DNA from: Enterobacteria phage Aplg8
Strand: one strand, 5' to 3'
DNA length: 64,000 nt
Sequence record: NC_054902.1
Shown piece after piece: positions 2,658 through 45,874 of this stretch (the first letter of the stretch is position 1; each line of letters starts with the position of its first letter). The notes beneath the pieces were generated by a model that worked only from the letters and a program-made list of their open reading frames with translations, was not told the origin of the DNA and did not search any database. The translations under genes and the position numbers were made by a program.

Positions 2658-3982
2658 TTGATTTCCTCTAAATCTTTAGTGTATTCGGTAACTACATCAG
2701 TAGTTTTCCAATATTCGTTTTCTTCTTTCTTAGCTTTAGCTTCTTCAGCAAGTTTCTTTGCTTCGTCGGAAGTCATATGAAAAATATTCATTCCGACTAG
2801 TTTATCAACATAAGAAGAATACATCTCAATTTTAGAAAGTTCTTCGGTCAGTTCTTTACGAGTTTTACCTTGAACAACAATTTCACCTGAAATTACTTTC
2901 TTAATGAAATGTGCCTTGGCAAAGGCTAAACGAAAAGCTGACTCAGTTTCTTTGATTTTGTTATCAATTCGTTTTTGGACATAAGTTTTACGAACTTCAA
3001 CAAAGTCTTTAATTAAATCAACTACGTTATCGTAAACTTGCAGTTTTCCTTTCTCATTAATGACGGTAATATTCTGAGAACGACGCTCAATCAACCCGAA
3101 GTCTTTCATAATTTTTGCATGGCGTTCTTCTTCATTATCGCTCAAAGAATATTCTTTACGGAATTTAACTTTGAATCCAAAACCATGCTCACCACAAGCA
3201 TCATCCCATGTAATGAAGCCTTTATCTTCAAGTGGGTCTAAGATTTTACTCACATAAGTTTCACGATCATACTTATACGGAATCTCAGTGATATGCATTT
3301 GAGTTCGTGAAGTAAACTTATATGTTCCACGAATTTCATATTGCCCATCAATTTCAACGACTTCACCACGAAATTCTGGGAATTCTACCTTCGGTTTAGT
3401 TACTTTCTTTCCTTGAAGAGCTTGCAGTACAGCTTTCTTAACAGAAGAAACACTATGAGGAAGAATGTAAGTTGCATAACCAGTTGCAATACCGGAAACG
3501 CCATTAAGAAGAACAGTAGGAATAATAGGCAAATAGAAAGCAGGCGGAATGTGTTCTTTATCTTGATGTACCGGAGCATATTCAGTATCTTTATATACGT
3601 TATAGAAATTTTTACTTACACGAGCAAAAATATAACGACTTGCTGCTGCTTTTTGGACGGTACGAGAACCGAAGTTTCCTTGACCATCTAACAAAGGAAA
3701 GTTATTATTCCAAGTGTTAGCCATCAAAGCCCCCGCATCTTGTGCAGAGTTTTCACCATGGTGATATCCAAGGTCCGCTACACCACCTGCAATAGAAGCG
3801 AGTTTGTGAAACTTATCTTTATTTCCTCGTGCCAAATCAAGAGCTCGAGCAATAACAAATCGTTGAACTGGCTTAAATCCATCAATCATATTTGGAATAG
3901 CACGATTTTCAACCGTGTACATAGCATAAGCCAATGCTTCATTATCAATGATACTTTTTAAATCGCGATTATTCAGTTGCAT
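2654..3982 (-). CDS. 52: DNA topoisomerase II medium subunit gp52 (GyrA-like)
   Basis: 442 aa, same length as T4 gp52; GyrA/ParC-like N-terminal motifs (FKPVQRFVI...); position between motA and rIIB. Confidence 0.9.
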   Translation of the reverse strand: MQLNNRDLKSIIDNEALAYAMYTVENRAIPNMIDGFKPVQRFVIARALDLARGNKDKFHKLASIAGGVADLGYHHGENSAQDAGALMANTWNNNFPLLDGQGNFGSRTVQKAAASRYIFARVSKNFYNVYKDTEYAPVHQDKEHIPPAFYLPIIPTVLLNGVSGIATGYATYILPHSVSSVKKAVLQALQGKKVTKPKVEFPEFRGEVVEIDGQYEIRGTYKFTSRTQMHITEIPYKYDRETYVSKILDPLEDKGFITWDDACGEHGFGFKVKFRKEYSLSDNEEERHAKIMKDFGLIERRSQNITVINEKGKLQVYDNVVDLIKDFVEVRKTYVQKRIDNKIKETESAFRLAFAKAHFIKKVISGEIVVQGKTRKELTEELSKIEMYSSYVDKLVGMNIFHMTSDEAKKLAEEAKAKKEENEYWKTTDVVTEYTKDLEEIK

Positions 3983-33218: not shown

Positions 33219-33455
33219 TCAAATGCAAGTAGTAATTACTCCAGTAGTGCTTATGCAGGTATTACCCATTTGCACACCTAAAGATCCATTTGTATTCACA
33301 TGAAGATTATCATCAATTTTAACTGATATTTTACCATTAGTGTGAATAACGGTGCTAGATTCAATCACAGGTTGAGTATCATTTTCAACACTAACAAATG
33401 GAACTGCTGCTAATGCAACTAAACAAACTGCTAAGCATCCCATAACAATTTTCAT
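33219..33455 (-). CDS. secreted/membrane-anchored small protein
   Basis: 78 aa from MKIVMGCLAVCLVALAAVPFVSV; N-terminal signal sequence. Confidence 0.5.
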   Translation of the reverse strand: MKIVMGCLAVCLVALAAVPFVSVENDTQPVIESSTVIHTNGKISVKIDDNLHVNTNGSLGVQMGNTCISTTGVITTCI

Positions 33456-33489
33456 TTTATTCTCCAAATCCGTATTAGTTGATAGTTGT

Positions 33490-33519
33490 ATAGTACCATG
33501 GAAGAACAGTCTTGTAAAC
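33490..33519 (-). promoter_or_regulatory. early promoter
   Basis: GTTTAC (33519..33514) - 18 bp - TACTAT (33495..33490); conserved leader. Confidence 0.55.
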
Positions 33520-33599
33520 AGTTTTGTGAAAATTTTTTAGGGAATTCTAAAGGTCCAGAATCATCTGTTTTTCATAAGTATAGATTTATATTACTTGTA

Positions 33600-33623
33600 T
33601 GAAAAAGGGACCCGGAGGTCCCC
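33600..33623 (-). terminator. terminator-like hairpin after gene 43
   Basis: gggacc-cgga-ggtccc stem-loop 33607..33622 followed on mRNA by UUUUUC. Confidence 0.5.
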
Positions 33624-38356: not shown

Positions 38357-39043
38357 TTAAAAATCGTGGGTAGAATCAGCTTCAAGAGCTACTACATAAT
38401 TCGCGTGTTCACCTTCAAATTTAGCAGCACCTTGTTTACCTTTTGCCCAGAGCAGAAGTTTATAATTTCCTGGTTGCATTTTCATATTTGCCATATTGAT
38501 AATGAAATTAAATGTATTTTCACCATCATAATCACCAAGAGTCAAAGAATATTTAACACGGGTAAGAGCAGAATCTTCTACTTTATTAAAACCGTTAATT
38601 ACGATTTTACCTTCTTTTACCGTGATAGCAATTGTATCAATCTGCAGACCACGAGATACACGCAACAGCTGTTGAAGGTCTTCAGCTTTAATTTCAGTAA
38701 CAACAGATGCTACCGGGAATGGAATTGGTTTATTAGGAGCAACTACTGTACTCGGATCGGCTGCTGGCCAAAAAATTGTTGAACGGGCATCAGCAATTTT
38801 AATATTACCATCTTCTGACTGGGAAATTTCTGCATCGTCATTAACTAGAGACAGAATACCGAGAAAACCGTTCAAATCGTAAATCGCTACATCAAAATCA
38901 ATAGTGTCAGAAATATTTGCTTCCGCATAAGTTGTACCATTAACTGCGCGAGTCATAATAAATTGACCGGATTTAAGCATAATACCAGAGTTAATAGTAG
39001 CGAAATTTTTAAGCAGAGCAGTAGTATCTTTAGACAGTTTCAT
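38357..39043 (-). CDS. 45: gp45 sliding clamp
   Basis: 228 aa (T4 gp45 length); MKLSKDTTALLKNFATINSGIML N-terminus. Confidence 0.92.
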   Translation of the reverse strand: MKLSKDTTALLKNFATINSGIMLKSGQFIMTRAVNGTTYAEANISDTIDFDVAIYDLNGFLGILSLVNDDAEISQSEDGNIKIADARSTIFWPAADPSTVVAPNKPIPFPVASVVTEIKAEDLQQLLRVSRGLQIDTIAITVKEGKIVINGFNKVEDSALTRVKYSLTLGDYDGENTFNFIINMANMKMQPGNYKLLLWAKGKQGAAKFEGEHANYVVALEADSTHDF

Positions 39044-39098
39044 GTAATTTCCTTCAATTCAAATGAGATTTAATTTTATAACTAATTTAATAAAGCAA

Positions 39099-39488
39099 TT
39101 AACGATTAAAATCAGCCGCAATTGTTTCCGCAACAATTTGAGCAGCAACAATTAGACGTTCATCTGCATTACCACAATAATCATCTTCAAGGCGTTCACC
39201 ACATGAAGTCATAATAAATTTAGCACCGGCGTTTAGAGATTCTGTAGTATGTTTGCGCATTAGTTCAATCCATTTATTACTTACTTCACGATCGATAGCT
39301 TCATAATACGCATGACGAGCAGGTGCAGATTTAATTTTGTTCTGAATAACTTCCATTGCGTTATCAGAAAGAGACAAAACCCATGCTCGACGGATTTTAT
39401 TTTGGTTTTGTGGATTTGATTCAGAACGCACGTGTTTTGGCTGAATATCTTTTACATCAACAGTATAATTCACAGTAATTTTAGTCAT
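39099..39488 (-). CDS. rpbA: RpbA RNA polymerase-binding protein
   Basis: 129 aa (T4 RpbA length), immediately after 45. Confidence 0.75.
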
Positions 39489-39497
39489 AATACACCT

Positions 39498-39689
39498 TTA
39501 GTCATAATAATCAGTAACAGTCCAAGCTTCATTTCTATTGGACATTATTTTTGTATATTCTGCTTTAAATGCATTCCTAAGCATATATTCAGTAACTATA
39601 TGCTCTTCATTAGAAAAATTATTTCTCAGAATATATCGTTTTATTTCAGGAAAAGTTAATAGATGCTGTCCAGTTGAATATTCTGCCAC
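39498..39689 (-). CDS. hypothetical protein (45.2 position)
   Basis: 63-aa ORF. Confidence 0.5.
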   Translation of the reverse strand: MAEYSTGQHLLTFPEIKRYILRNNFSNEEHIVTEYMLRNAFKAEYTKIMSNRNEAWTVTDYYD

Positions 39690-39699
39690 AGTTCCTCCG

Positions 39700-39707
39700 T
39701 ATAAATA
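39700..39707 (+). promoter_or_regulatory. late promoter TATAAATA (plus strand) for the HNH gene
   Basis: exact TATAAATA 33 nt upstream of ATG at 39741, with AAGGA SD in between. Confidence 0.6.
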
Positions 39708-39740
39708 TGTTTATCACTCGCTGTATCAAAAGGATATGTT

Positions 39741-40457
39741 ATGAATTATAAACTAATTTATGAAAAGTTAATCTCTAATGCTAAATCTCGAAAACTTGAT
39801 TGCTATACTGAATCTCATCACATTATACCACGCTGTTTAAATGGCAGCGATGATGCCTCAAACTTAGTAGATTTAACACCAGAAGAGCACTATGTAGCTC
39901 ATCAACTTTTAGTAAAAATTTATCCTTCTGAACCAAAATTAGTCTATGCTGCTAACATGATGACAGTTTCCACGAAATACGCTAAACGTAACAATAAAAC
40001 TTTCGGTTGGATTCGTCGTAAACTCTGGGAAATAGAAAAGAATAAAGAATTCTCCCAGGAGACACGAAAGAAAATGTCTGATGCAGTAGCTAATAAAGCA
40101 AGACTAACTTGTCCACATTGCGGTAAGTCCGGATTAAGCGGGAATATGAATCGATGGCATTTTGATAACTGCCCGAATCACCCTAATCCTAAAGTTAGAC
40201 CACCGATGTCTAAAGAACACAGAAATAATATCTCAAACGGGCTTAAAGCAATCATTCTTGAAGAAACATCCTGCGAATTCTGCGGAATGATAGGCAAGAA
40301 ATGCGTTATCGCAGCGCATAGAAATTTCTGCAAGAAAAATCCAAATGGACGCAAGAAAACTGAAAAGACTGGTACTTGCGTCCATTGTGGTAAAGTTACC
40401 ACTTTCGGAAATTTATCAAGATGGCATAATGATAACTGTAAATATAAACCTAGCTAA
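39741..40457 (+). mobile_element. free-standing HNH homing endonuclease gene (Mob-like), convergent with gene 46
   Basis: 238 aa; HNH motif ESHHIIPRCLNGSDDASNLVDLTPEEHYVAHQ; three C-terminal zinc-ribbon repeats CxxC...RWHxDNC; only long plus-strand ORF among minus-strand early genes. Confidence 0.8.
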
Positions 40458-42138
40458 TCTTAGCTAAACTAAATCTACCAACTTTTTCCATTTGAATATG
40501 CTGACCATATTCTTGTGGGTCATGGTCTTTATGCGAAATTATGAAGAAGTTGGTATCCTTCAAACCATCTAAAATTTTAGCTACATTTTTAATACCTTCA
40601 GCATCAAATGCACCGTCATACACTTCATCAAGAAATAAACAACTTATTTTAACACCTGAAACTTTTTCAGCAATATCACGCCAAGTAAATAAAAGAGCAA
40701 TATCAATTCGTGCTTTTTCACCTTGACTGAATGAAGCATAACTAAAATCTTCACGACCACGGGATTTAATTGTCTCATTAAATTCTTCATCTAATGTAAA
40801 CACATAATCCGCTTCCATTATTTTAAGATAATGGTTAATCTGCTTATTAAATAATGGAATGTACTTTTTAATAATAGCACCTTTAATACCAGAATCTTTG
40901 AGCATATCAGTCAAAATTCCTCGGTGGTATTTTTCCATTACTAAATTAGTTTTTGTCTTAACAATTTTATCAAGTTCTTCTTGAAGCAGTGCTATTTCAT
41001 CAGCATGGTCAATAAACTCAGAAGATGCTTTTTCTATAGCTGCTTTAACTTTTTTAGCTTTATCTACCGTCGTGATTAGAGATTGCTTTTTATTGCGAAT
41101 ATCATTTGCCAACGACTGCTGAGTTTTAATATTATCTCGGTATTCATCAACAAGAACTTTTAAATTATCACGGTGTGTTGAAAGCTGTTCAAACGAATGC
41201 GTACATTCAGAAACTTTATCTTTAATTTTAGAAACAACTTTATCACCGGAACTTAATTGTGACAAGCAGGTTGGACATAATCCACCTTCGTGATACATAT
41301 TAATGACTTTATTATACGAGTCAATTTTTGATTTAATTAAAACTGCTTCTTGACCGATTTTATTAAATGCATCAGTCGGGTCTTCATCCAAAACAATATT
41401 AACTAATCTTTCATTAGCTTCTTCTATTTCCGATTTTAGCGTTCTAGCTTCTTTTGCCAAATCATCATACATATTTTGTAGACGAGTAAGGTTGTCACCC
41501 GTTAATTTTTTCTGGCGTTCAACGTTATCATTATATATTTTAATTTGTTGGATAATACTATCTTTTTTAACATCAAGCACTTGGTTTTGTGAATTTAATT
41601 CACGTATTAGTGCTTTATTAAGCTTATCCATTTCAGCTAATGTTCCTACCTCAAGCAGGTCTTCCACAAGCTTTCTTCGCGCAGGGGTCGACAAACCCAT
41701 GAAAGGGGTATACCCTGCTGTACCAAGGACAACAATCTGCTTGAAACTGGCATATGACATTCCGATAAGCTGTTCAAATTCTGCTTGGAAATCTTTACTG
41801 CTGGCAGATTCATTAAGACGTGTACCGTTAACGGTGATTTCGAAAACGTTTGGTTTTTGTCCTCTTTTGATATAGTACTTTTTCTCATCATATTCCATCC
41901 ACAATTCAACTAAAAGTTCTTTCTTATTTGTGCTGTTTATTAATTGACCTTTCTTTACATCACGAAATGGCTTGCCAAAAAGCCCAAATGTGATGGCTTC
42001 TAACATAGTAGACTTACCACCGCCATTTCGTCCAGTAATAAGAGTTTTTTGAACCTTATCTAATTGAATGTCAACTCCATTTTGACCAACTGACATTATA
42101 TTTTTATATTTTACTCTATTAAGTTTAAATGATTTCAT
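40450..42138 (-). CDS. 46: gp46 recombination nuclease subunit (Rad50/SbcC-like ATPase)
   Basis: 562 aa; Walker A GRNGGGKST, coiled-coil with CPTC zinc hook, signature/Walker B near C-terminus. Confidence 0.92.
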   Translation of the reverse strand: MKSFKLNRVKYKNIMSVGQNGVDIQLDKVQKTLITGRNGGGKSTMLEAITFGLFGKPFRDVKKGQLINSTNKKELLVELWMEYDEKKYYIKRGQKPNVFEITVNGTRLNESASSKDFQAEFEQLIGMSYASFKQIVVLGTAGYTPFMGLSTPARRKLVEDLLEVGTLAEMDKLNKALIRELNSQNQVLDVKKDSIIQQIKIYNDNVERQKKLTGDNLTRLQNMYDDLAKEARTLKSEIEEANERLVNIVLDEDPTDAFNKIGQEAVLIKSKIDSYNKVINMYHEGGLCPTCLSQLSSGDKVVSKIKDKVSECTHSFEQLSTHRDNLKVLVDEYRDNIKTQQSLANDIRNKKQSLITTVDKAKKVKAAIEKASSEFIDHADEIALLQEELDKIVKTKTNLVMEKYHRGILTDMLKDSGIKGAIIKKYIPLFNKQINHYLKIMEADYVFTLDEEFNETIKSRGREDFSYASFSQGEKARIDIALLFTWRDIAEKVSGVKISCLFLDEVYDGAFDAEGIKNVAKILDGLKDTNFFIISHKDHDPQEYGQHIQMEKVGRFSLAKIS

Positions 42139-42153
42139 TTTGTATCCAATTGT

Positions 42154-43008
42154 TCACAATGAAGAAAATTCTTTAACTAAAGCCTGTAATGAAGCCTCTA
42201 TTGGATATCCATTCTTAACTAACATTTTCCTAAACATTACATGTTTAGGACGATTATATGATATCCACAATTCATACAATTTATCTTTATTATCCCAATG
42301 ATAGCCTTTTCGTCGAGATGCTATATGAGCTTTTCTAATCTCCGGATTTTTCCAACTAGCAGCTACTGAATTTGATATAGCTATTTTATATTCAGGTTTT
42401 GATAAAGCAGCACGAACAGCCTTTTGGTGTTTAATTTTATTTTCTTCGTTATTAAACCATTCCCTTGAAGCCATTGAAATTTTTTGTTTTGTTTTAAAAT
42501 TATTTAATCTTTCTTTATTATCTTTCCTATTTTTTGCTACTGAAAAATATTTTAATGCCCTTTCTCTAGCAGCATTTCTATTTTGCGGATTTGAATAATA
42601 CTGTTGAAGCCTTTTTGATATTGTGTCACTTACATCTTGTTTTATAAAACTATATTCAGCAGCTATTAAATCAACTTCGGCTAAAGATAAATTTTTATAT
42701 GTTTTTCCTGACATCATTCTATTTAAAGCATTTAGCATTTTTCCATTTTTACCTTTTGCTAATAAGAAGTGTGCTTTAAAATGATTAAAATGACTTAAAT
42801 TAACTAAATTCCATGTAGATTTTAAATATTCAGGAAATATTGATTTAGGAAGCACGTGGTGTGCTTCCGTTTTACCTGGAGTTTTAACAGTTGAATTCAC
42901 AGAAATAAAATTAATGTAAGACTTGGCGTCTTCTTCACTCAACGCTAATTTTTCAACTAATTCCTTTATTAAAAATTCATCATTAATGTCAAGTTTAAAA
43001 TTCTTCAC
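42154..43008 (-). mobile_element. HNH homing endonuclease gene with NUMOD-like repeats
   Basis: 284 aa; HNH-like TEAHHVLPKS...NLVNLSHFNHFKAH; C-terminal repeated basic helix motifs; inserted between 46 and 47. Confidence 0.7.
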
Positions 43009-43220: not shown

Positions 43221-43455
43221 CCTTAATACAAGATACAGCCATATCTCGTAATGATTTAGGTGTGTCATTATCTAAAATGTTGAAGTTAAAAGATACAGCC
43301 CAGTCAGTGCAGACTGTAACCTTTTTAATACAATTATCTTCAACTTCTAGCGGTTCAAACCAATATTCAATAATTTCTTTATGCCCAATATCATCTTTTA
43401 CTTCGCATTCAAAATGCTGACTCATCATGACATCTTTAAATTCATCAAAAATCAT
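43192..43455 (-). CDS. hypothetical protein (46.1/46.2 position)
   Basis: 87-aa ORF, 4-nt overlap with gene 47. Confidence 0.5.
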   Translation of the reverse strand: MIFDEFKDVMMSQHFECEVKDDIGHKEIIEYWFEPLEVEDNCIKKVTVCTDWAVSFNFNILDNDTPKSLRDMAVSCIKDAYCEVFDI

Positions 43456-44471
43456 TGTGTTGCCTCTACATATAACTGATTTGCATATTGAATAAGTGCT
43501 TCACGATCAGAATCAGTGATGTCTGGAATTGCATTAATGTATTCTTCCATTAACGTCTGAAGAGATTGAACTTCAACTTCTTCACTGTCATCTGACTCGA
43601 CAGAGTTATCAATCTTTGACACAACTCGTAATGAATGCACAACTTTTTCTAGTTCAGATTCGAACTTCGTCAGATTTTTGTCTACCTCAGTTACTATAAC
43701 ACGTACTGATAGATTTGTAAAATCTTTATAGTCAATTTTTCCTTTAAATGGATAATGAATTCTACGATGCCAGGTAGTGTTGTTTGGAATAAATTCCATT
43801 CGTTCTGTTTTTGTATCAAACATCCAGAACCCGCGAGGGTCATTCTCGTCACCTGCAGTTAGTGTCCATGGTGTCCCAATATATCTGACGTTAGCAGCCT
43901 CAGAGATAGTATGGAAGTGACCAGACCACACTTCTTTATAAGTCTTAAGGAAATCAGGTTCAAGACCGTGAGATTTCATTCCTTTATAAAAATAAAATCC
44001 ATTCAGTTCCCAGTGACCAACACAAAAAGAAGCAGAAGAAGTTTTTATGTGCTCGAGAATTTCACCAGTATTTTCTTCACACATCCAAGGAATTAAATCA
44101 ATTAAACATCCGTCAAAATCTACTGTAGTAGGCTTATCATATACTTTAACATTAGGATATTTAGCCAAAAGCTCAGTAGAGGCATTTGGAGTTAAAGTAT
44201 TTTTAAAGTGCATATCATGGTTTCCTACAACAGTATGCAGGGTAATACCAGCATCATCAAGCATTTGAACTATTTCACGAGCGAACTCCATAGTTTTATG
44301 TGTGATTGCTTTTCGCACATCAAAAATATCACCATATTGAATCCAGGTAGTAATTCCATTTTTCTTAGAATATTCTATTGCTTGTTTAATTCCATCTAAC
44401 TGAATGGATTGAACCCACTCATCATCGGCTTTAACGCCTAAATGCCAATCACCTAAATTTAAAATTTTCAT
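43452..44471 (-). CDS. 47: gp47 recombination nuclease subunit (Mre11/SbcD-like)
   Basis: 339 aa (T4 gp47 length); calcineurin-like phosphoesterase motifs (GDWH, GNHD). Confidence 0.92.
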   Translation of the reverse strand: MKILNLGDWHLGVKADDEWVQSIQLDGIKQAIEYSKKNGITTWIQYGDIFDVRKAITHKTMEFAREIVQMLDDAGITLHTVVGNHDMHFKNTLTPNASTELLAKYPNVKVYDKPTTVDFDGCLIDLIPWMCEENTGEILEHIKTSSASFCVGHWELNGFYFYKGMKSHGLEPDFLKTYKEVWSGHFHTISEAANVRYIGTPWTLTAGDENDPRGFWMFDTKTERMEFIPNNTTWHRRIHYPFKGKIDYKDFTNLSVRVIVTEVDKNLTKFESELEKVVHSLRVVSKIDNSVESDDSEEVEVQSLQTLMEEYINAIPDITDSDREALIQYANQLYVEATQ

Positions 44472-44649: not shown

Positions 44650-45850
44650 ATTTTGTAATAATGTCAAACTGTTCTTTAAAGCAGAAGCTTGAATCTTGAT
44701 GCTGATACAAAAATTCATAAGCTTTTTCGCGTTCACGGTCATAAAGAGTTCGGTCAGATGACAGTTCTTTAATACGTTCAAACGTTGATTCCATGTCATT
44801 TTCATCAAACCAAATGATACCGCTATCATGCGAGGTCAAAGGAGTATTATCAACACGGAATTTTAAATTTTCGCCAGTAGATTTCCAAAATACCGGAATT
44901 GTTCCACATGCACCAAGCTCGAGATGAGTATATTCTAAAGAACGTTGTAGATATTTTTTATCCAACTTACTCAACTGATAACCAAATCCGGATTTACTCA
45001 TGCGTTCAAGCATTTCGCTATTTACATAACGGTCAAGAATTTGCGTTGGCAAATTAGGAGCAATTTTAATTTGGTCTACTTGATGAAGACGATAATACTC
45101 GTATGGAATTCCTTTTTCTTTAATAGGAATGAACGCTGGAGAACGTTCCAGACCTTCCATAATAGTACTTAGTCCTGCAGGTTTAAGATGTTTTTCATGA
45201 AAATCAAACATCTGATAAAAACCTTTCCATGTAGTCGTACGACCAATCCAACGGTTGATATTCATGTTAATTTCAGAAACATCTTTCCAGTAGGTTGACC
45301 GAACCTTCGCAATATCCATAGGAGGCTGAAAGTTATATACTGTCGGTGCTTCTTCAATATCATCAAACAGAGAAACTGTTTCAGGATACCATTCTTTCAT
45401 CAGAACTTTATTAAAATCACCATTATCAGAATGGCTAAAAATAACATCAGCTCGACGAACAGTTTCTTCTAATCCCAAATTTCGGCGCAAAGAAAGAGAA
45501 GAATGGTCATGTTGATAAACTACAACACGAACCGAAGGTTTAATGTTATCAATAATTTTTTTATAGTTATTAATAGTGTCTTCTTCAACCGAAGTAGCAG
45601 GAACTGAATTGATAATTAGAATATCACAATCATTTACCAGCTTAAGTGTTTTATCATATTCTTTTGCCAATAAAACCGGAATTGAAAATGATTTATAATC
45701 ATGCGCGCAATTACGAGTAAATGATTTATCTTTAGCATAAACCAAAGTTACTTCATGACCATTCTTAATAAACCAATCACGTTGCTCAAGAGAAAATTTA
45801 GTTACACCACAACCTTCAAGACCTCGAGCCATAAAAATACATACTTTCAT
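44648..45850 (-). CDS. agt: alpha-glucosyltransferase
   Basis: 400 aa (T4 alpha-gt length); position between 47 and 55. Confidence 0.85.
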   Translation of the reverse strand: MKVCIFMARGLEGCGVTKFSLEQRDWFIKNGHEVTLVYAKDKSFTRNCAHDYKSFSIPVLLAKEYDKTLKLVNDCDILIINSVPATSVEEDTINNYKKIIDNIKPSVRVVVYQHDHSSLSLRRNLGLEETVRRADVIFSHSDNGDFNKVLMKEWYPETVSLFDDIEEAPTVYNFQPPMDIAKVRSTYWKDVSEINMNINRWIGRTTTWKGFYQMFDFHEKHLKPAGLSTIMEGLERSPAFIPIKEKGIPYEYYRLHQVDQIKIAPNLPTQILDRYVNSEMLERMSKSGFGYQLSKLDKKYLQRSLEYTHLELGACGTIPVFWKSTGENLKFRVDNTPLTSHDSGIIWFDENDMESTFERIKELSSDRTLYDREREKAYEFLYQHQDSSFCFKEQFDIITK

Positions 45851-45874
45851 TTAATATCCTCTTTGTTTTGGTTT

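Follow-up and report, generated by a model that had tools for sequence, protein, structure and literature searches.

Homing endonuclease genes (HEGs) of the Mob type are a well-known cause of the patchy gene content of T-even phages, and in itself the gene described here adds nothing new to them. HEG carriers classically become immune through disruption of the insertion site, as with the intron-encoded HEGs. The T4 endonuclease MobE nicks nrdB at nt 122–126, a polymorphic stretch beside a conserved block coding for FFWRPEE. Its C-terminal module is presumed to contact the conserved block, and the polymorphisms presumably protect genomes that carry mobE (PMC2790892). In T4, segD is the only HEG that is opposed to its neighbours, and it has no identifiable promoter (review PMC2988022). 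Phage RB32 contains two mob-like HNH HEGs, and RB51 contains one that is mob-like and one other HNH gene (Petrov et al. 2010, PMC2993671). Two further papers report beneficial roles of phage HEGs (PMC11620839, PMC13096335).

Here we investigate a HEG in a 64-kb segment of a Tequatrovirus (T4-like) genome (the window, meaning the whole stretch of DNA that was analysed). Over positions 39000–41200 its identity to the phages slur07 and T4_ev240 is 99.0%. The minus strand carries gene 44, gene 45 (38357–39043), rpbA (39099–39488), gene 45.2 (39498–39689; Pfam Gp45_2, 4e-34), gene 46 (40450–42138; 562 aa, a Rad50/SbcC-like recombination nuclease subunit) and gene 47 (43452–44471). Between 45.2 and 46, on the plus strand, is a free-standing HNH HEG of the MobE family, at 39741–40457 and 238 aa long. 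This ORF and its HNH motif had been picked out in an earlier sequence-only reading of the same DNA, and all of the coordinates given there are correct. They include the convergence with gene 46, where the TAA of the HEG (40455–40457) and the TAG of gene 46 (40452–40450 on the minus strand) leave an overlap of 8 nt. This 3' overlap varies in size: RB51 and F2 have 4 nt, Lw1 and KLB23 have 14 nt, and IME281 and MN01 have none. T4 has no endonuclease gene at the site, as the reading had stated, and 55 bp alone separate its genes 45.2 and 46. A second HEG is present at 42154–43008, which means that gene 46 is flanked by both. The two are distributed independently: T2 has only the second, and fFiEco06 and Ozark have only the first (the gene at 39741–40457). 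Elsewhere in the window mobB is missing, with window position 45841/45866 joining T4 37817/38679.

The protein matches PHROG 655 (phrog_655, 'homing endonuclease') at E 1e-68. In BLASTP against T4 MobE it is 43% identical across aa 1–120 (E 2e-29) and 34% over its whole length. At E ≤ 1e-10 the family numbers 2279 homologues, and many of these carry Pfam NUMOD3. The N-terminal HNH (beta-beta-alpha-metal) nuclease domain, assigned from the invariant HNH columns and the model, covers aa 1–100 (39741–40040, plus strand), and within it the HNH motif ESHHIIPRCLNGSDDASNLVDLTPEEHYVAHQ spans aa 24–55. Across an alignment of 36 relatives, E24, H26, H27, P30, G35, N41, H50 and H54 of this core are invariant. 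The Pfam HNH score of the protein is 16.9 bits, under the threshold of 21.4. The PHROG match, the similarity to MobE and the invariance of H26, H27, N41, H50 and H54 bear out the earlier assignment to the HNH homing-endonuclease family. The comparison with the Mob proteins, I-TevIII and I-HmuI that had been suggested gave a divided result: MobE matches, but to I-HmuI and I-TevIII there is no significant match in sequence or fold. A relationship to the RNA-guided IscB nucleases (NCBIfam NF040563) was rejected at 23 bits against a cut-off of 175, with only the HNH segment matched.

An AlphaFold model built on the alignment has a mean pLDDT of 90, and 96 in the HNH region. The nuclease core is predicted to form two strands and then a helix (strands 24–27 and 42–45, helix 47–60). 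It is followed in the model by a helical linker, two short helices at NUMOD3-like sequences, and three modules that each consist of a beta-hairpin plus a helix. Whole-chain fold searches of the model returned weak HNH matches only, as expected because of this beads-on-a-string architecture. From alignment and model, the first NUMOD3-like helix (FSQETRKKMSDA) with CCHC finger 1 (C124, C127, H140, C144) is at 40050–40172, and the second (MSKEHRNNISNG) with CCHC finger 2 (C177, C180, H191, C195) is at 40203–40325, both on the plus strand. CCHC finger 3, at the C-terminus (C213, C216, H229, C233; 40377–40439, plus strand), is the last of the modules and is invariant in the 36 sequences. In the model both FSQETRKKMS and MSKEHRNNIS form helices. 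Pfam NUMOD3 is present in relatives at the position of the NUMOD3-like helix, and T4 nrdB.1 also matches at the aligned positions; the NUMOD3 profile (PF07460) itself finds no match in the window's protein at E ≤ 0.1.

The Cys modules had been described as three zinc-ribbon repeats. Three CxxC...H...C modules do exist, but in the model each is a beta-hairpin and a helix, the form of a CCHC finger. Each has one CxxC, a His and a Cys; a zinc ribbon would need two CxxC knuckles and a three-stranded sheet. Pfam zinc-ribbon profiles match relatives below threshold only, and none of the curated Pfam families captures the three modules. The best Foldseek matches are to C2H2-type finger arrays, at E 0.01–0.1. 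As modelled, the modules are CCHC fingers rather than zinc ribbons, with metal binding predicted. T4 nrdB.1 encodes a finger to which the last module shows 58% identity. In the T4 reference this name is given to the detached 3' portion of mobE, which holds its NUMOD3 segment and C-terminal finger.

What would drive expression of a gene that faces its neighbours? An exact T4-type late promoter box, TATAAATA, is present on the plus strand at 39700–39707, 33 nt upstream of the HEG, where it abuts the Shine-Dalgarno sequence of 45.2 on the opposite strand. The Shine-Dalgarno sequence of the HEG, AAGGA at 39730–39734, is 6 nt ahead of the ATG at 39741 and within a conserved 5'UTR element, TATCAAA..AGG. 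Both motifs had been noted in the sequence-only reading. There are 2 copies of TATAAATA in the 64-kb window, compared with 10.4 +/- 3.5 in shuffled sequence. The motif is therefore avoided in this early-gene window, being five-fold depleted, and the match upstream of the HEG is beyond chance. All seven orthologues examined, which represent five genera, have a (TA)TAAATA box 33–37 nt ahead of the ATG. At this distance RB51, IME281 and F2 have the box as in the window, MN01 has CATAAATA, and Lw1 and KLB23 have the TAAATA core, and the position is kept though the upstream gene junctions differ. This conservation supports a predicted late plus-strand transcript of the HEG from its own promoter. 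Folding of the 5'UTR into a structure that masks the ribosome-binding site is within the range of shuffles (z -0.8, -1.4 and +0.3). An operator for autorepression of the I-TevI type, which would make the promoter region similar to the homing site, was also considered and rejected, since the best ungapped matches of 39690–39745 to T4 33247–33620 (12/16, 14/20 and 15/24) are at shuffle level.

At the junction of the stop codons, a direct and inverted repeat, TAGCTA-ATCT-TAGCTA, reaches across both stops (40451–40466). It had been noted as a tandem TAGCTAA duplication at 40451–40467. TAGCTAA-TCT-TAGCTAA is present, but it is not a conserved junction feature, as RB51 lacks it; since TAGCTA is palindromic, the 'tandem duplication' can just as well be read as a 6-bp hairpin, of about -5.6 kcal/mol, which is indistinguishable from shuffles (z -0.04). 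Roles as a target-site duplication or a terminator were rejected on its absence from RB51, its non-significant energy and a terminator scan that is blank at the junction. Unrelated hairpins, AAGCCTC-N5-GAGGCTT, are found at the same junction in IME281, MN01 and F2. The T4 intergenic elements that are displaced by the cassette are a hairpin of -22 kcal/mol (z -5) and a middle promoter motif that resembles a MotA box. A MotA-like motif also occurs antisense within the HEG, at 40250–40225, and is conserved only in close relatives and weakly in MN01; we regard it as no more than a candidate.

To the earlier reading the HEG looked like a lineage-specific insertion, but it is not restricted to one lineage. 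The same gene is in about 57 Tequatrovirus records, and at least four genera besides Tequatrovirus have orthologues at this site. By protein identity of at least 95% it is found in 58 GenBank/RefSeq phage records, with RB32, RB51 and slur07 among the carriers, and the ORF is intact and 95–100% identical in all Tequatrovirus carriers. Of 604 matching records, only 58 cover the ORF. We counted 57 natural-DNA carriers and left out phage Ac3 (OK040907), which the protein search returns as the 58th carrier but which we took to be odd or recoded; its DNA is about 82% identical to RB51 throughout, with the base composition equalised. Presence and absence of the HEG varies within each of the three genera surveyed, Tequatrovirus, Dhakavirus and Pseudotevenvirus. 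It occupies the site in 9 of 55 matching records of Dhakavirus (IME281, Bp7 and MX01; HEG 64% identical to that of the window) and in 24 of 62 of Pseudotevenvirus (Lw1 and phages of Cronobacter and Enterobacter; 44–48%). Orthologues are also found, with occupancy not counted, in Gaprivervirus phage MN01 (61%), in F2 of the divergent species Tequatrovirus efftwo (58%) and in Slopekvirus phage KLB23 (43%). All of the orthologues in the 45.2/46 gap share the orientation converging on gene 46. In RB16 this gap is occupied by an unrelated endonuclease gene, of the HNH_3-AP2 type, and the site is therefore a hot spot.

Identities between genera for the HEG and for gp46 are 64/63, 48/40, 61/66, 43/41 and 67/77%, so that divergence of the HEG roughly parallels that of gp46. 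The exception is F2. Its HEG is 68% identical to that of IME281 and 58% to that of the window, and its gp46 is 79% identical to that of the window and 62% to that of IME281, a discordance that indicates transfer between lineages. This parallel divergence with one exception points to a history of long residence with occasional transfer, rather than to a lineage-specific insertion. A copy of the HEG that is 75% identical in nucleotides is present at another locus in a Yersinia phage. Because a search of IMG/VR found no near-identical copy (best 64%), the GenBank phage set was used for the population analysis. GenBank annotates the gene as 'homing endonuclease', its annotation goes back to RB32/RB51, and the RB51 entry has the note 'RB32ORF054w, similar to mobB, putative site-specific intron-like DNA endonuclease'. 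It is probably among the mob-like genes counted for RB32 and RB51 by Petrov et al. (2010, PMC2993671). Our literature search found no paper characterising the protein. The HEG is neither new nor lineage-specific; it is an annotated but uncharacterised member of a well-known family.

Nor is the cassette a simple insertion. The window differs from T4 by a replacement that changes the start of 45.2 and the last residues of gp46 and brings with it a divergent tract of about 215–260 nt of gene 46. Alignment with T4, which the sequence-only reading had called for, places the boundaries at the start codon of 45.2 and about 17 nt inside gene 46. At the left break the window has GTG and an extra Ala codon where T4 has ATG. 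At the right break gp46 ends in ..GRFSLAKIS instead of the ..GRFTVMV of T4 (TVMV to SLAKIS), and in the HEG-free relatives it almost always ends in ..GRFTVM(V/E/Q). IME281 shows the same kind of change at the N-terminus of 45.2 relative to JS10.

Beyond the right break, differences from T4 are concentrated at the 3' end of gene 46. Of the 68 mismatches in the gene, 44 are within 40470–40731, and they are dense up to 40668. The HEG-linked divergent tract comprises the 72 codons at the 3' end, which encode gp46 from Walker B onwards (40453–40668, minus strand), with sparser differences to 40731. The remaining 1.4 kb of the gene is about 1.8% different, and on the 45.2 side there are 4 mismatches in 484. 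The tract has 22 codons with non-synonymous and 14 with synonymous changes, which makes it a truly distinct allele of these 72 codons. Taken as 273 nt, the tract is bimodal in the phage collection, with 58 records at least 97% identical and the next best at 84.9%. Every one of the natural HEG carriers (57/57) has the carrier-type tract, and none has a T4-like one. A single genome, KMB22, has the carrier-type tract without the HEG and is a natural recombinant. Its junction is the T4-like 55 bp, its sequence is T4-like to 40497 and carrier-type from 40516 or before, and the crossover, between 40497 and 40516, is inside a single long identical block. KMB22, although one genome, is the product that would be expected if conversion from a break in gene 46 ended short of the HEG. 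As a donor of the window's tract, the phage collection contains nothing above 84.9% outside the carriers, and among IMG/VR relatives T4 is nearest at about 80%.

The same asymmetry recurs independently in two other genera. Between IME281 and JS10 there are 64 mismatches in 240 nt of the 3' end of gene 46 and then about 1.5% difference, with 1 mismatch in 548 on the 45.2 side; between Lw1 and Miller there are about 89 mismatches in 230 nt, and then about 4%. In all three genera a block that is 17–30% divergent covers the last ~63–72 codons of gene 46, and the 45.2 side is ~98–99.8% identical. For the first two pairs (window/T4 and IME281/JS10) the dense tract starts at the codon right after ..FTWRDIA, and for Lw1/Miller it starts about 10 codons nearer the C-terminus. 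The empty junctions differ, T4 having the 55-bp spacer with its hairpin and JS10 and Miller having gene overlaps of 4 nt and 7 nt, respectively. In every lineage the 45.2/46 junction is rewritten on both sides, and among carriers it is the most variable spot, as seen between the window and RB51. Travel of the tract between genera together with the HEG was rejected, the tracts of the window and IME281 being 68% identical and no closer than their HEG-free counterparts.

We consider it probable that this is a functional free-standing HEG of the MobE family that homes by a cut or nick in the 3' end of gene 46 in HEG-free phages, with co-conversion. The best-supported type of mechanism is intronless homing of the MobE/SegG type, as inferred from these comparisons. 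In this model late transcription of the HEG would start from its own TATAAATA and run against the early and middle genes around it, and in a mixed infection the protein would bind the 3' part of gene 46 in a related HEG-free phage. A nick or cut would fall near the boundary of the conserved ..ALLFTWRDIA coding block and the polymorphic Walker-B region, about 60–260 bp from the gene 46 stop, a position taken solely from the linkage. The break would be resected and then repaired by the T4 recombination machinery from the HEG-carrying genome as template, and the HEG would be copied in along with the stretch to the break, that is the last ~63–72 codons of gene 46. The carrier genome would be protected because this stretch differs by 17–30% in nucleotides. 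Over time only the interval from HEG to break would stay linked. Such homing would explain why the block is one-sided and sharply bounded and why it recurs in three genera with different empty junctions, as well as the absence of carriers with a T4 block and the existence of KMB22. Low homology in the 20%-diverged block alone would suppress recombination and keep the HEG linked to it without selection. The parallel divergence of HEG and gp46 would also fit a gene that has long been inherited vertically and at present moves little. A DNA word common to the MobE site and the gene 46 boundary was sought and rejected, the only one being TTGGCGT (Trp-Arg codons), in opposite orientation relative to the polymorphic side.

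Is the target in gene 46, or is it the empty 45.2/46 junction (T4 ~33247–33315) into which the cassette has gone? In the second case an active endonuclease would recognise the junction, insertion would destroy the site, and the gene 46 tract would be passenger DNA from the donor. Disruption of the insertion site is the classical immunity of carriers, and the rewriting of the junction on both sides in every lineage and its variability between the window and RB51 fit with it. The empty junctions, however, are wholly different between genera, and yet related endonucleases share the site, which is better explained by a conserved coding target in gene 46. A cut at the junction is also expected to give roughly symmetric co-conversion; the 45.2 flank is nearly unchanged in all three pairs (~98–99.8% identical), and none of the 57 carriers has a T4-like tract. 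The cut made by MobE itself lies about 120 nt into its flanking gene, away from its own insertion point. We regard a junction target as unlikely, and a target in the 3' end of gene 46 as the preferred reading.

Two further explanations concern whether the gene is mobile and whether it is expressed, and both are less probable still. It is improbable that the protein is a resident one that is no longer mobile or has been domesticated, either as a relic like T4 SegD/I-TevIII or as a nuclease with a role in interference with competing phages or some other host-beneficial role, with the patchiness due to loss and ordinary recombination. Such a resident would be expected to diverge roughly in parallel with gp46 through long co-residence, as the HEG does, and to this can be added the intact ORF, 95–100% identical in all Tequatrovirus carriers, and the beneficial roles of phage HEGs reported in the papers cited above (PMC11620839, PMC13096335). 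Loss is harder to reconcile with empty sites that are clean, genus-typical junctions with no deletion scars; the discordance of F2 indicates transfer between lineages, the Yersinia phage has its copy at another locus, and the catalytic residues are invariant. A competitive benefit, moreover, is compatible with homing, as both would use the same cutting activity. Very improbable in our judgement is that TATAAATA is fortuitous and the HEG silent, or read by stray plus-strand transcription as was proposed for the antisense segD in T4. Lw1 and KLB23 have the TAAATA core only, and segD, likewise opposed to its neighbours, lacks an identifiable promoter (PMC2988022), but the motif is five-fold depleted in the window and is nevertheless 33 nt from the ATG, and its position is kept in seven orthologues of five genera despite differing upstream junctions.

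Returning to homing through gene 46, a wider proposal can be made, although we hold it only tentatively and think it rather doubtful. In at least five genera a single endonuclease lineage may have remained the partner of the gene 46 3' end, its array of fingers and NUMOD3 helices reading the conserved block for the signature motif (..ALLFTWRDIA) and its HNH domain nicking the polymorphic Walker-B region next to it. The C-terminal ATPase half-site (Walker B, D-loop and H-loop; ~63–72 codons) would then be a portable, self-immunising cassette. If true, gp46 would have its alleles replaced in modular fashion by a selfish nuclease whose own breaks it processes. What is added here is the HEG-linked block of gene 46 in three genera and the KMB22 recombinant, which lead to a testable prediction of the cut site for an uncharacterised Mob enzyme. 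The case illustrates how Mob-type elements can exchange a portion of an essential recombination ATPase among phages. For phage-therapy genomics, the source of many carriers, it means that differences in the 3' end of gene 46 among near-identical isolates reflect a cassette and not ordinary divergence.

Among the known systems, T4 MobE (Wilson & Edgell 2009, PMC2790892) is the most similar. The N-terminal HNH domains are 43% identical, both proteins have NUMOD3-like helices and end in the same CCHC finger, and both genes are free-standing between conserved genes, with a polymorphic stretch of a flanking essential gene beside a conserved coding block. They differ in location, mobE being between nrdA and nrdB and the present HEG at 45.2/46, and in expression, as mobE is promoterless and co-transcribed with nrdA whereas the HEG is opposed to its neighbours and has its own late promoter motif. 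The HEG protein has three CCHC fingers and MobE has one. For MobE both nicking and mobility have been demonstrated; for the HEG they are predicted. T4 MobB, which is named in the annotation of RB51 and RB32, is likewise a mob-class HNH gene in an intergenic position with its own upstream promoter (PMC2988022), but its match to the HEG is a weak local one at the DNA level, 68.6% over 121 nt in the HNH motif. Judged on these alignments, MobE is the closer paralogue. The genetic logic proposed for the HEG, a cut within the adjacent conserved gene and obligatory co-conversion of everything from the cut to the HEG, has been shown by experiment for endonucleases of a different nuclease family.

The HEG protein shares with I-HmuI and I-TevIII an extended two-part design, in which an HNH domain is joined to a separate DNA-binding module, and nicking is a plausible outcome for such a design (discussion in PMC2790892). 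Those two enzymes are intron-encoded, unlike the free-standing HEG. Finally, the locus resembles the HEG islands of Barth et al. (2023, PMC10448857). That concept comes from T5orf172 and IPA-HNH genes of the ICP1 type, and the two HEGs of the window differ in being distributed independently; as in those islands, however, an essential gene is bracketed by two HEGs, here gene 46, and these are at the edges of essential-gene alleles that have been exchanged.

Gene 46 in the window is flanked by more than the first homing endonuclease gene (HEG), the MobE-family HNH gene between 45.2 and 46. A second HNH homing-endonuclease ORF of 284 aa (window 42154–43008, minus strand; phrog_655, 8e-45) lies between 46 and 46.1, where the T4 genes overlap and carry no insert. 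This leaves gene 46 with a HEG on each side, a 'HEG island'. T2 is among the 70 carriers of the second HEG in the 516 matching records, and the distribution of this gene is independent of that of the first; the RB51 copy is frameshifted. In phage RB16, the gap between 45.2 and 46 is occupied by an unrelated HNH_3-AP2 endonuclease gene, co-oriented with gene 46 (RB16 locus L124, 1228–1803), and another putative HEG is present directly upstream of gene 46. HEGs have repeatedly landed at both ends of gene 46.

The 3' side of gene 44 is a further replication-gene landing site for the family of the first HEG. The HEGs adjacent to gene 44 have a related HNH domain: the aligned N-terminal part (aa 1–116 to 1–201) is 40–58% identical. 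In these more distant T4-like phages (IMG/VR contigs L013, L029, L031, L032, L035, L037, L040 and L043), the HEGs begin 2 nt past the stop of the homologue of gene 44, which encodes a clamp-loader protein. Additionally, Yersinia phage vB_YenM_P8 contains a HEG copy (84754–85443, hit H284) with 75% nucleotide identity to the IME281 HEG, which adjoins the topoisomerase II medium-subunit gene and is thus at a different locus from that of IME281. Alignment to T4 revealed that T4 mobB is missing from the window at 45841–45866. These two positions align with T4 37817 and 38679, and therefore approximately 24 bp here replaces approximately 860 bp holding T4 mobB.

Two records are unusual. Phage vB-Eco-KMB22 (OR539217) has the carrier-type gene 46 tract, the divergent 3' block otherwise linked to the first HEG, in a HEG-free genome (locus L120, 1487–1771), with the crossover between window positions 40497 and 40516. 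Phage Ac3 (OK040907, locus L128) encodes the RB51-type HEG protein, yet its DNA has only ~82% identity to RB51 throughout the full 2.9 kb, with near-equal base composition. To judge from its sequence, the Ac3 record looks like a recoded or back-translated one.

The T4 46-45.2 spacer contains TGCTTTA-N11-TATAAT, which is removed by the cassette comprising the first HEG and its rewritten junction. Antisense within this HEG is a MotA-box-type middle-promoter motif, TGCTTTA-N12-TATTAT (window 40225–40250, minus strand), ~540 nt upstream of 45.2. Could this candidate be an embedded replacement promoter? Or, is it a chance match, for which about 0.1 would be expected per HEG? In the orthologue comparison, the motif is conserved in RB51, weakly so in MN01, and missing from the IME281, F2, Lw1 and KLB23 HEGs.

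The T4 spacer also generates a strong hairpin in the minus-strand transcript (T4 33239–33319; locus L001, 9240–9320), with a folding energy of -22.1 kcal/mol and a z of -4.96, equalled by 0 of 200 shuffles. HEG carriers have lost this hairpin. Common to IME281, MN01 and F2 is a 7-bp GC-rich hairpin, AAGCCTC-N5-GAGGCTT, spanning the HEG stop codon (3700–3725 in IME281 locus L003; around 1905–1930 in MN01 and F2 loci L125 and L126). Its position is the same as that of the TAGCTA palindrome in the window, yet the two sequences are unrelated.
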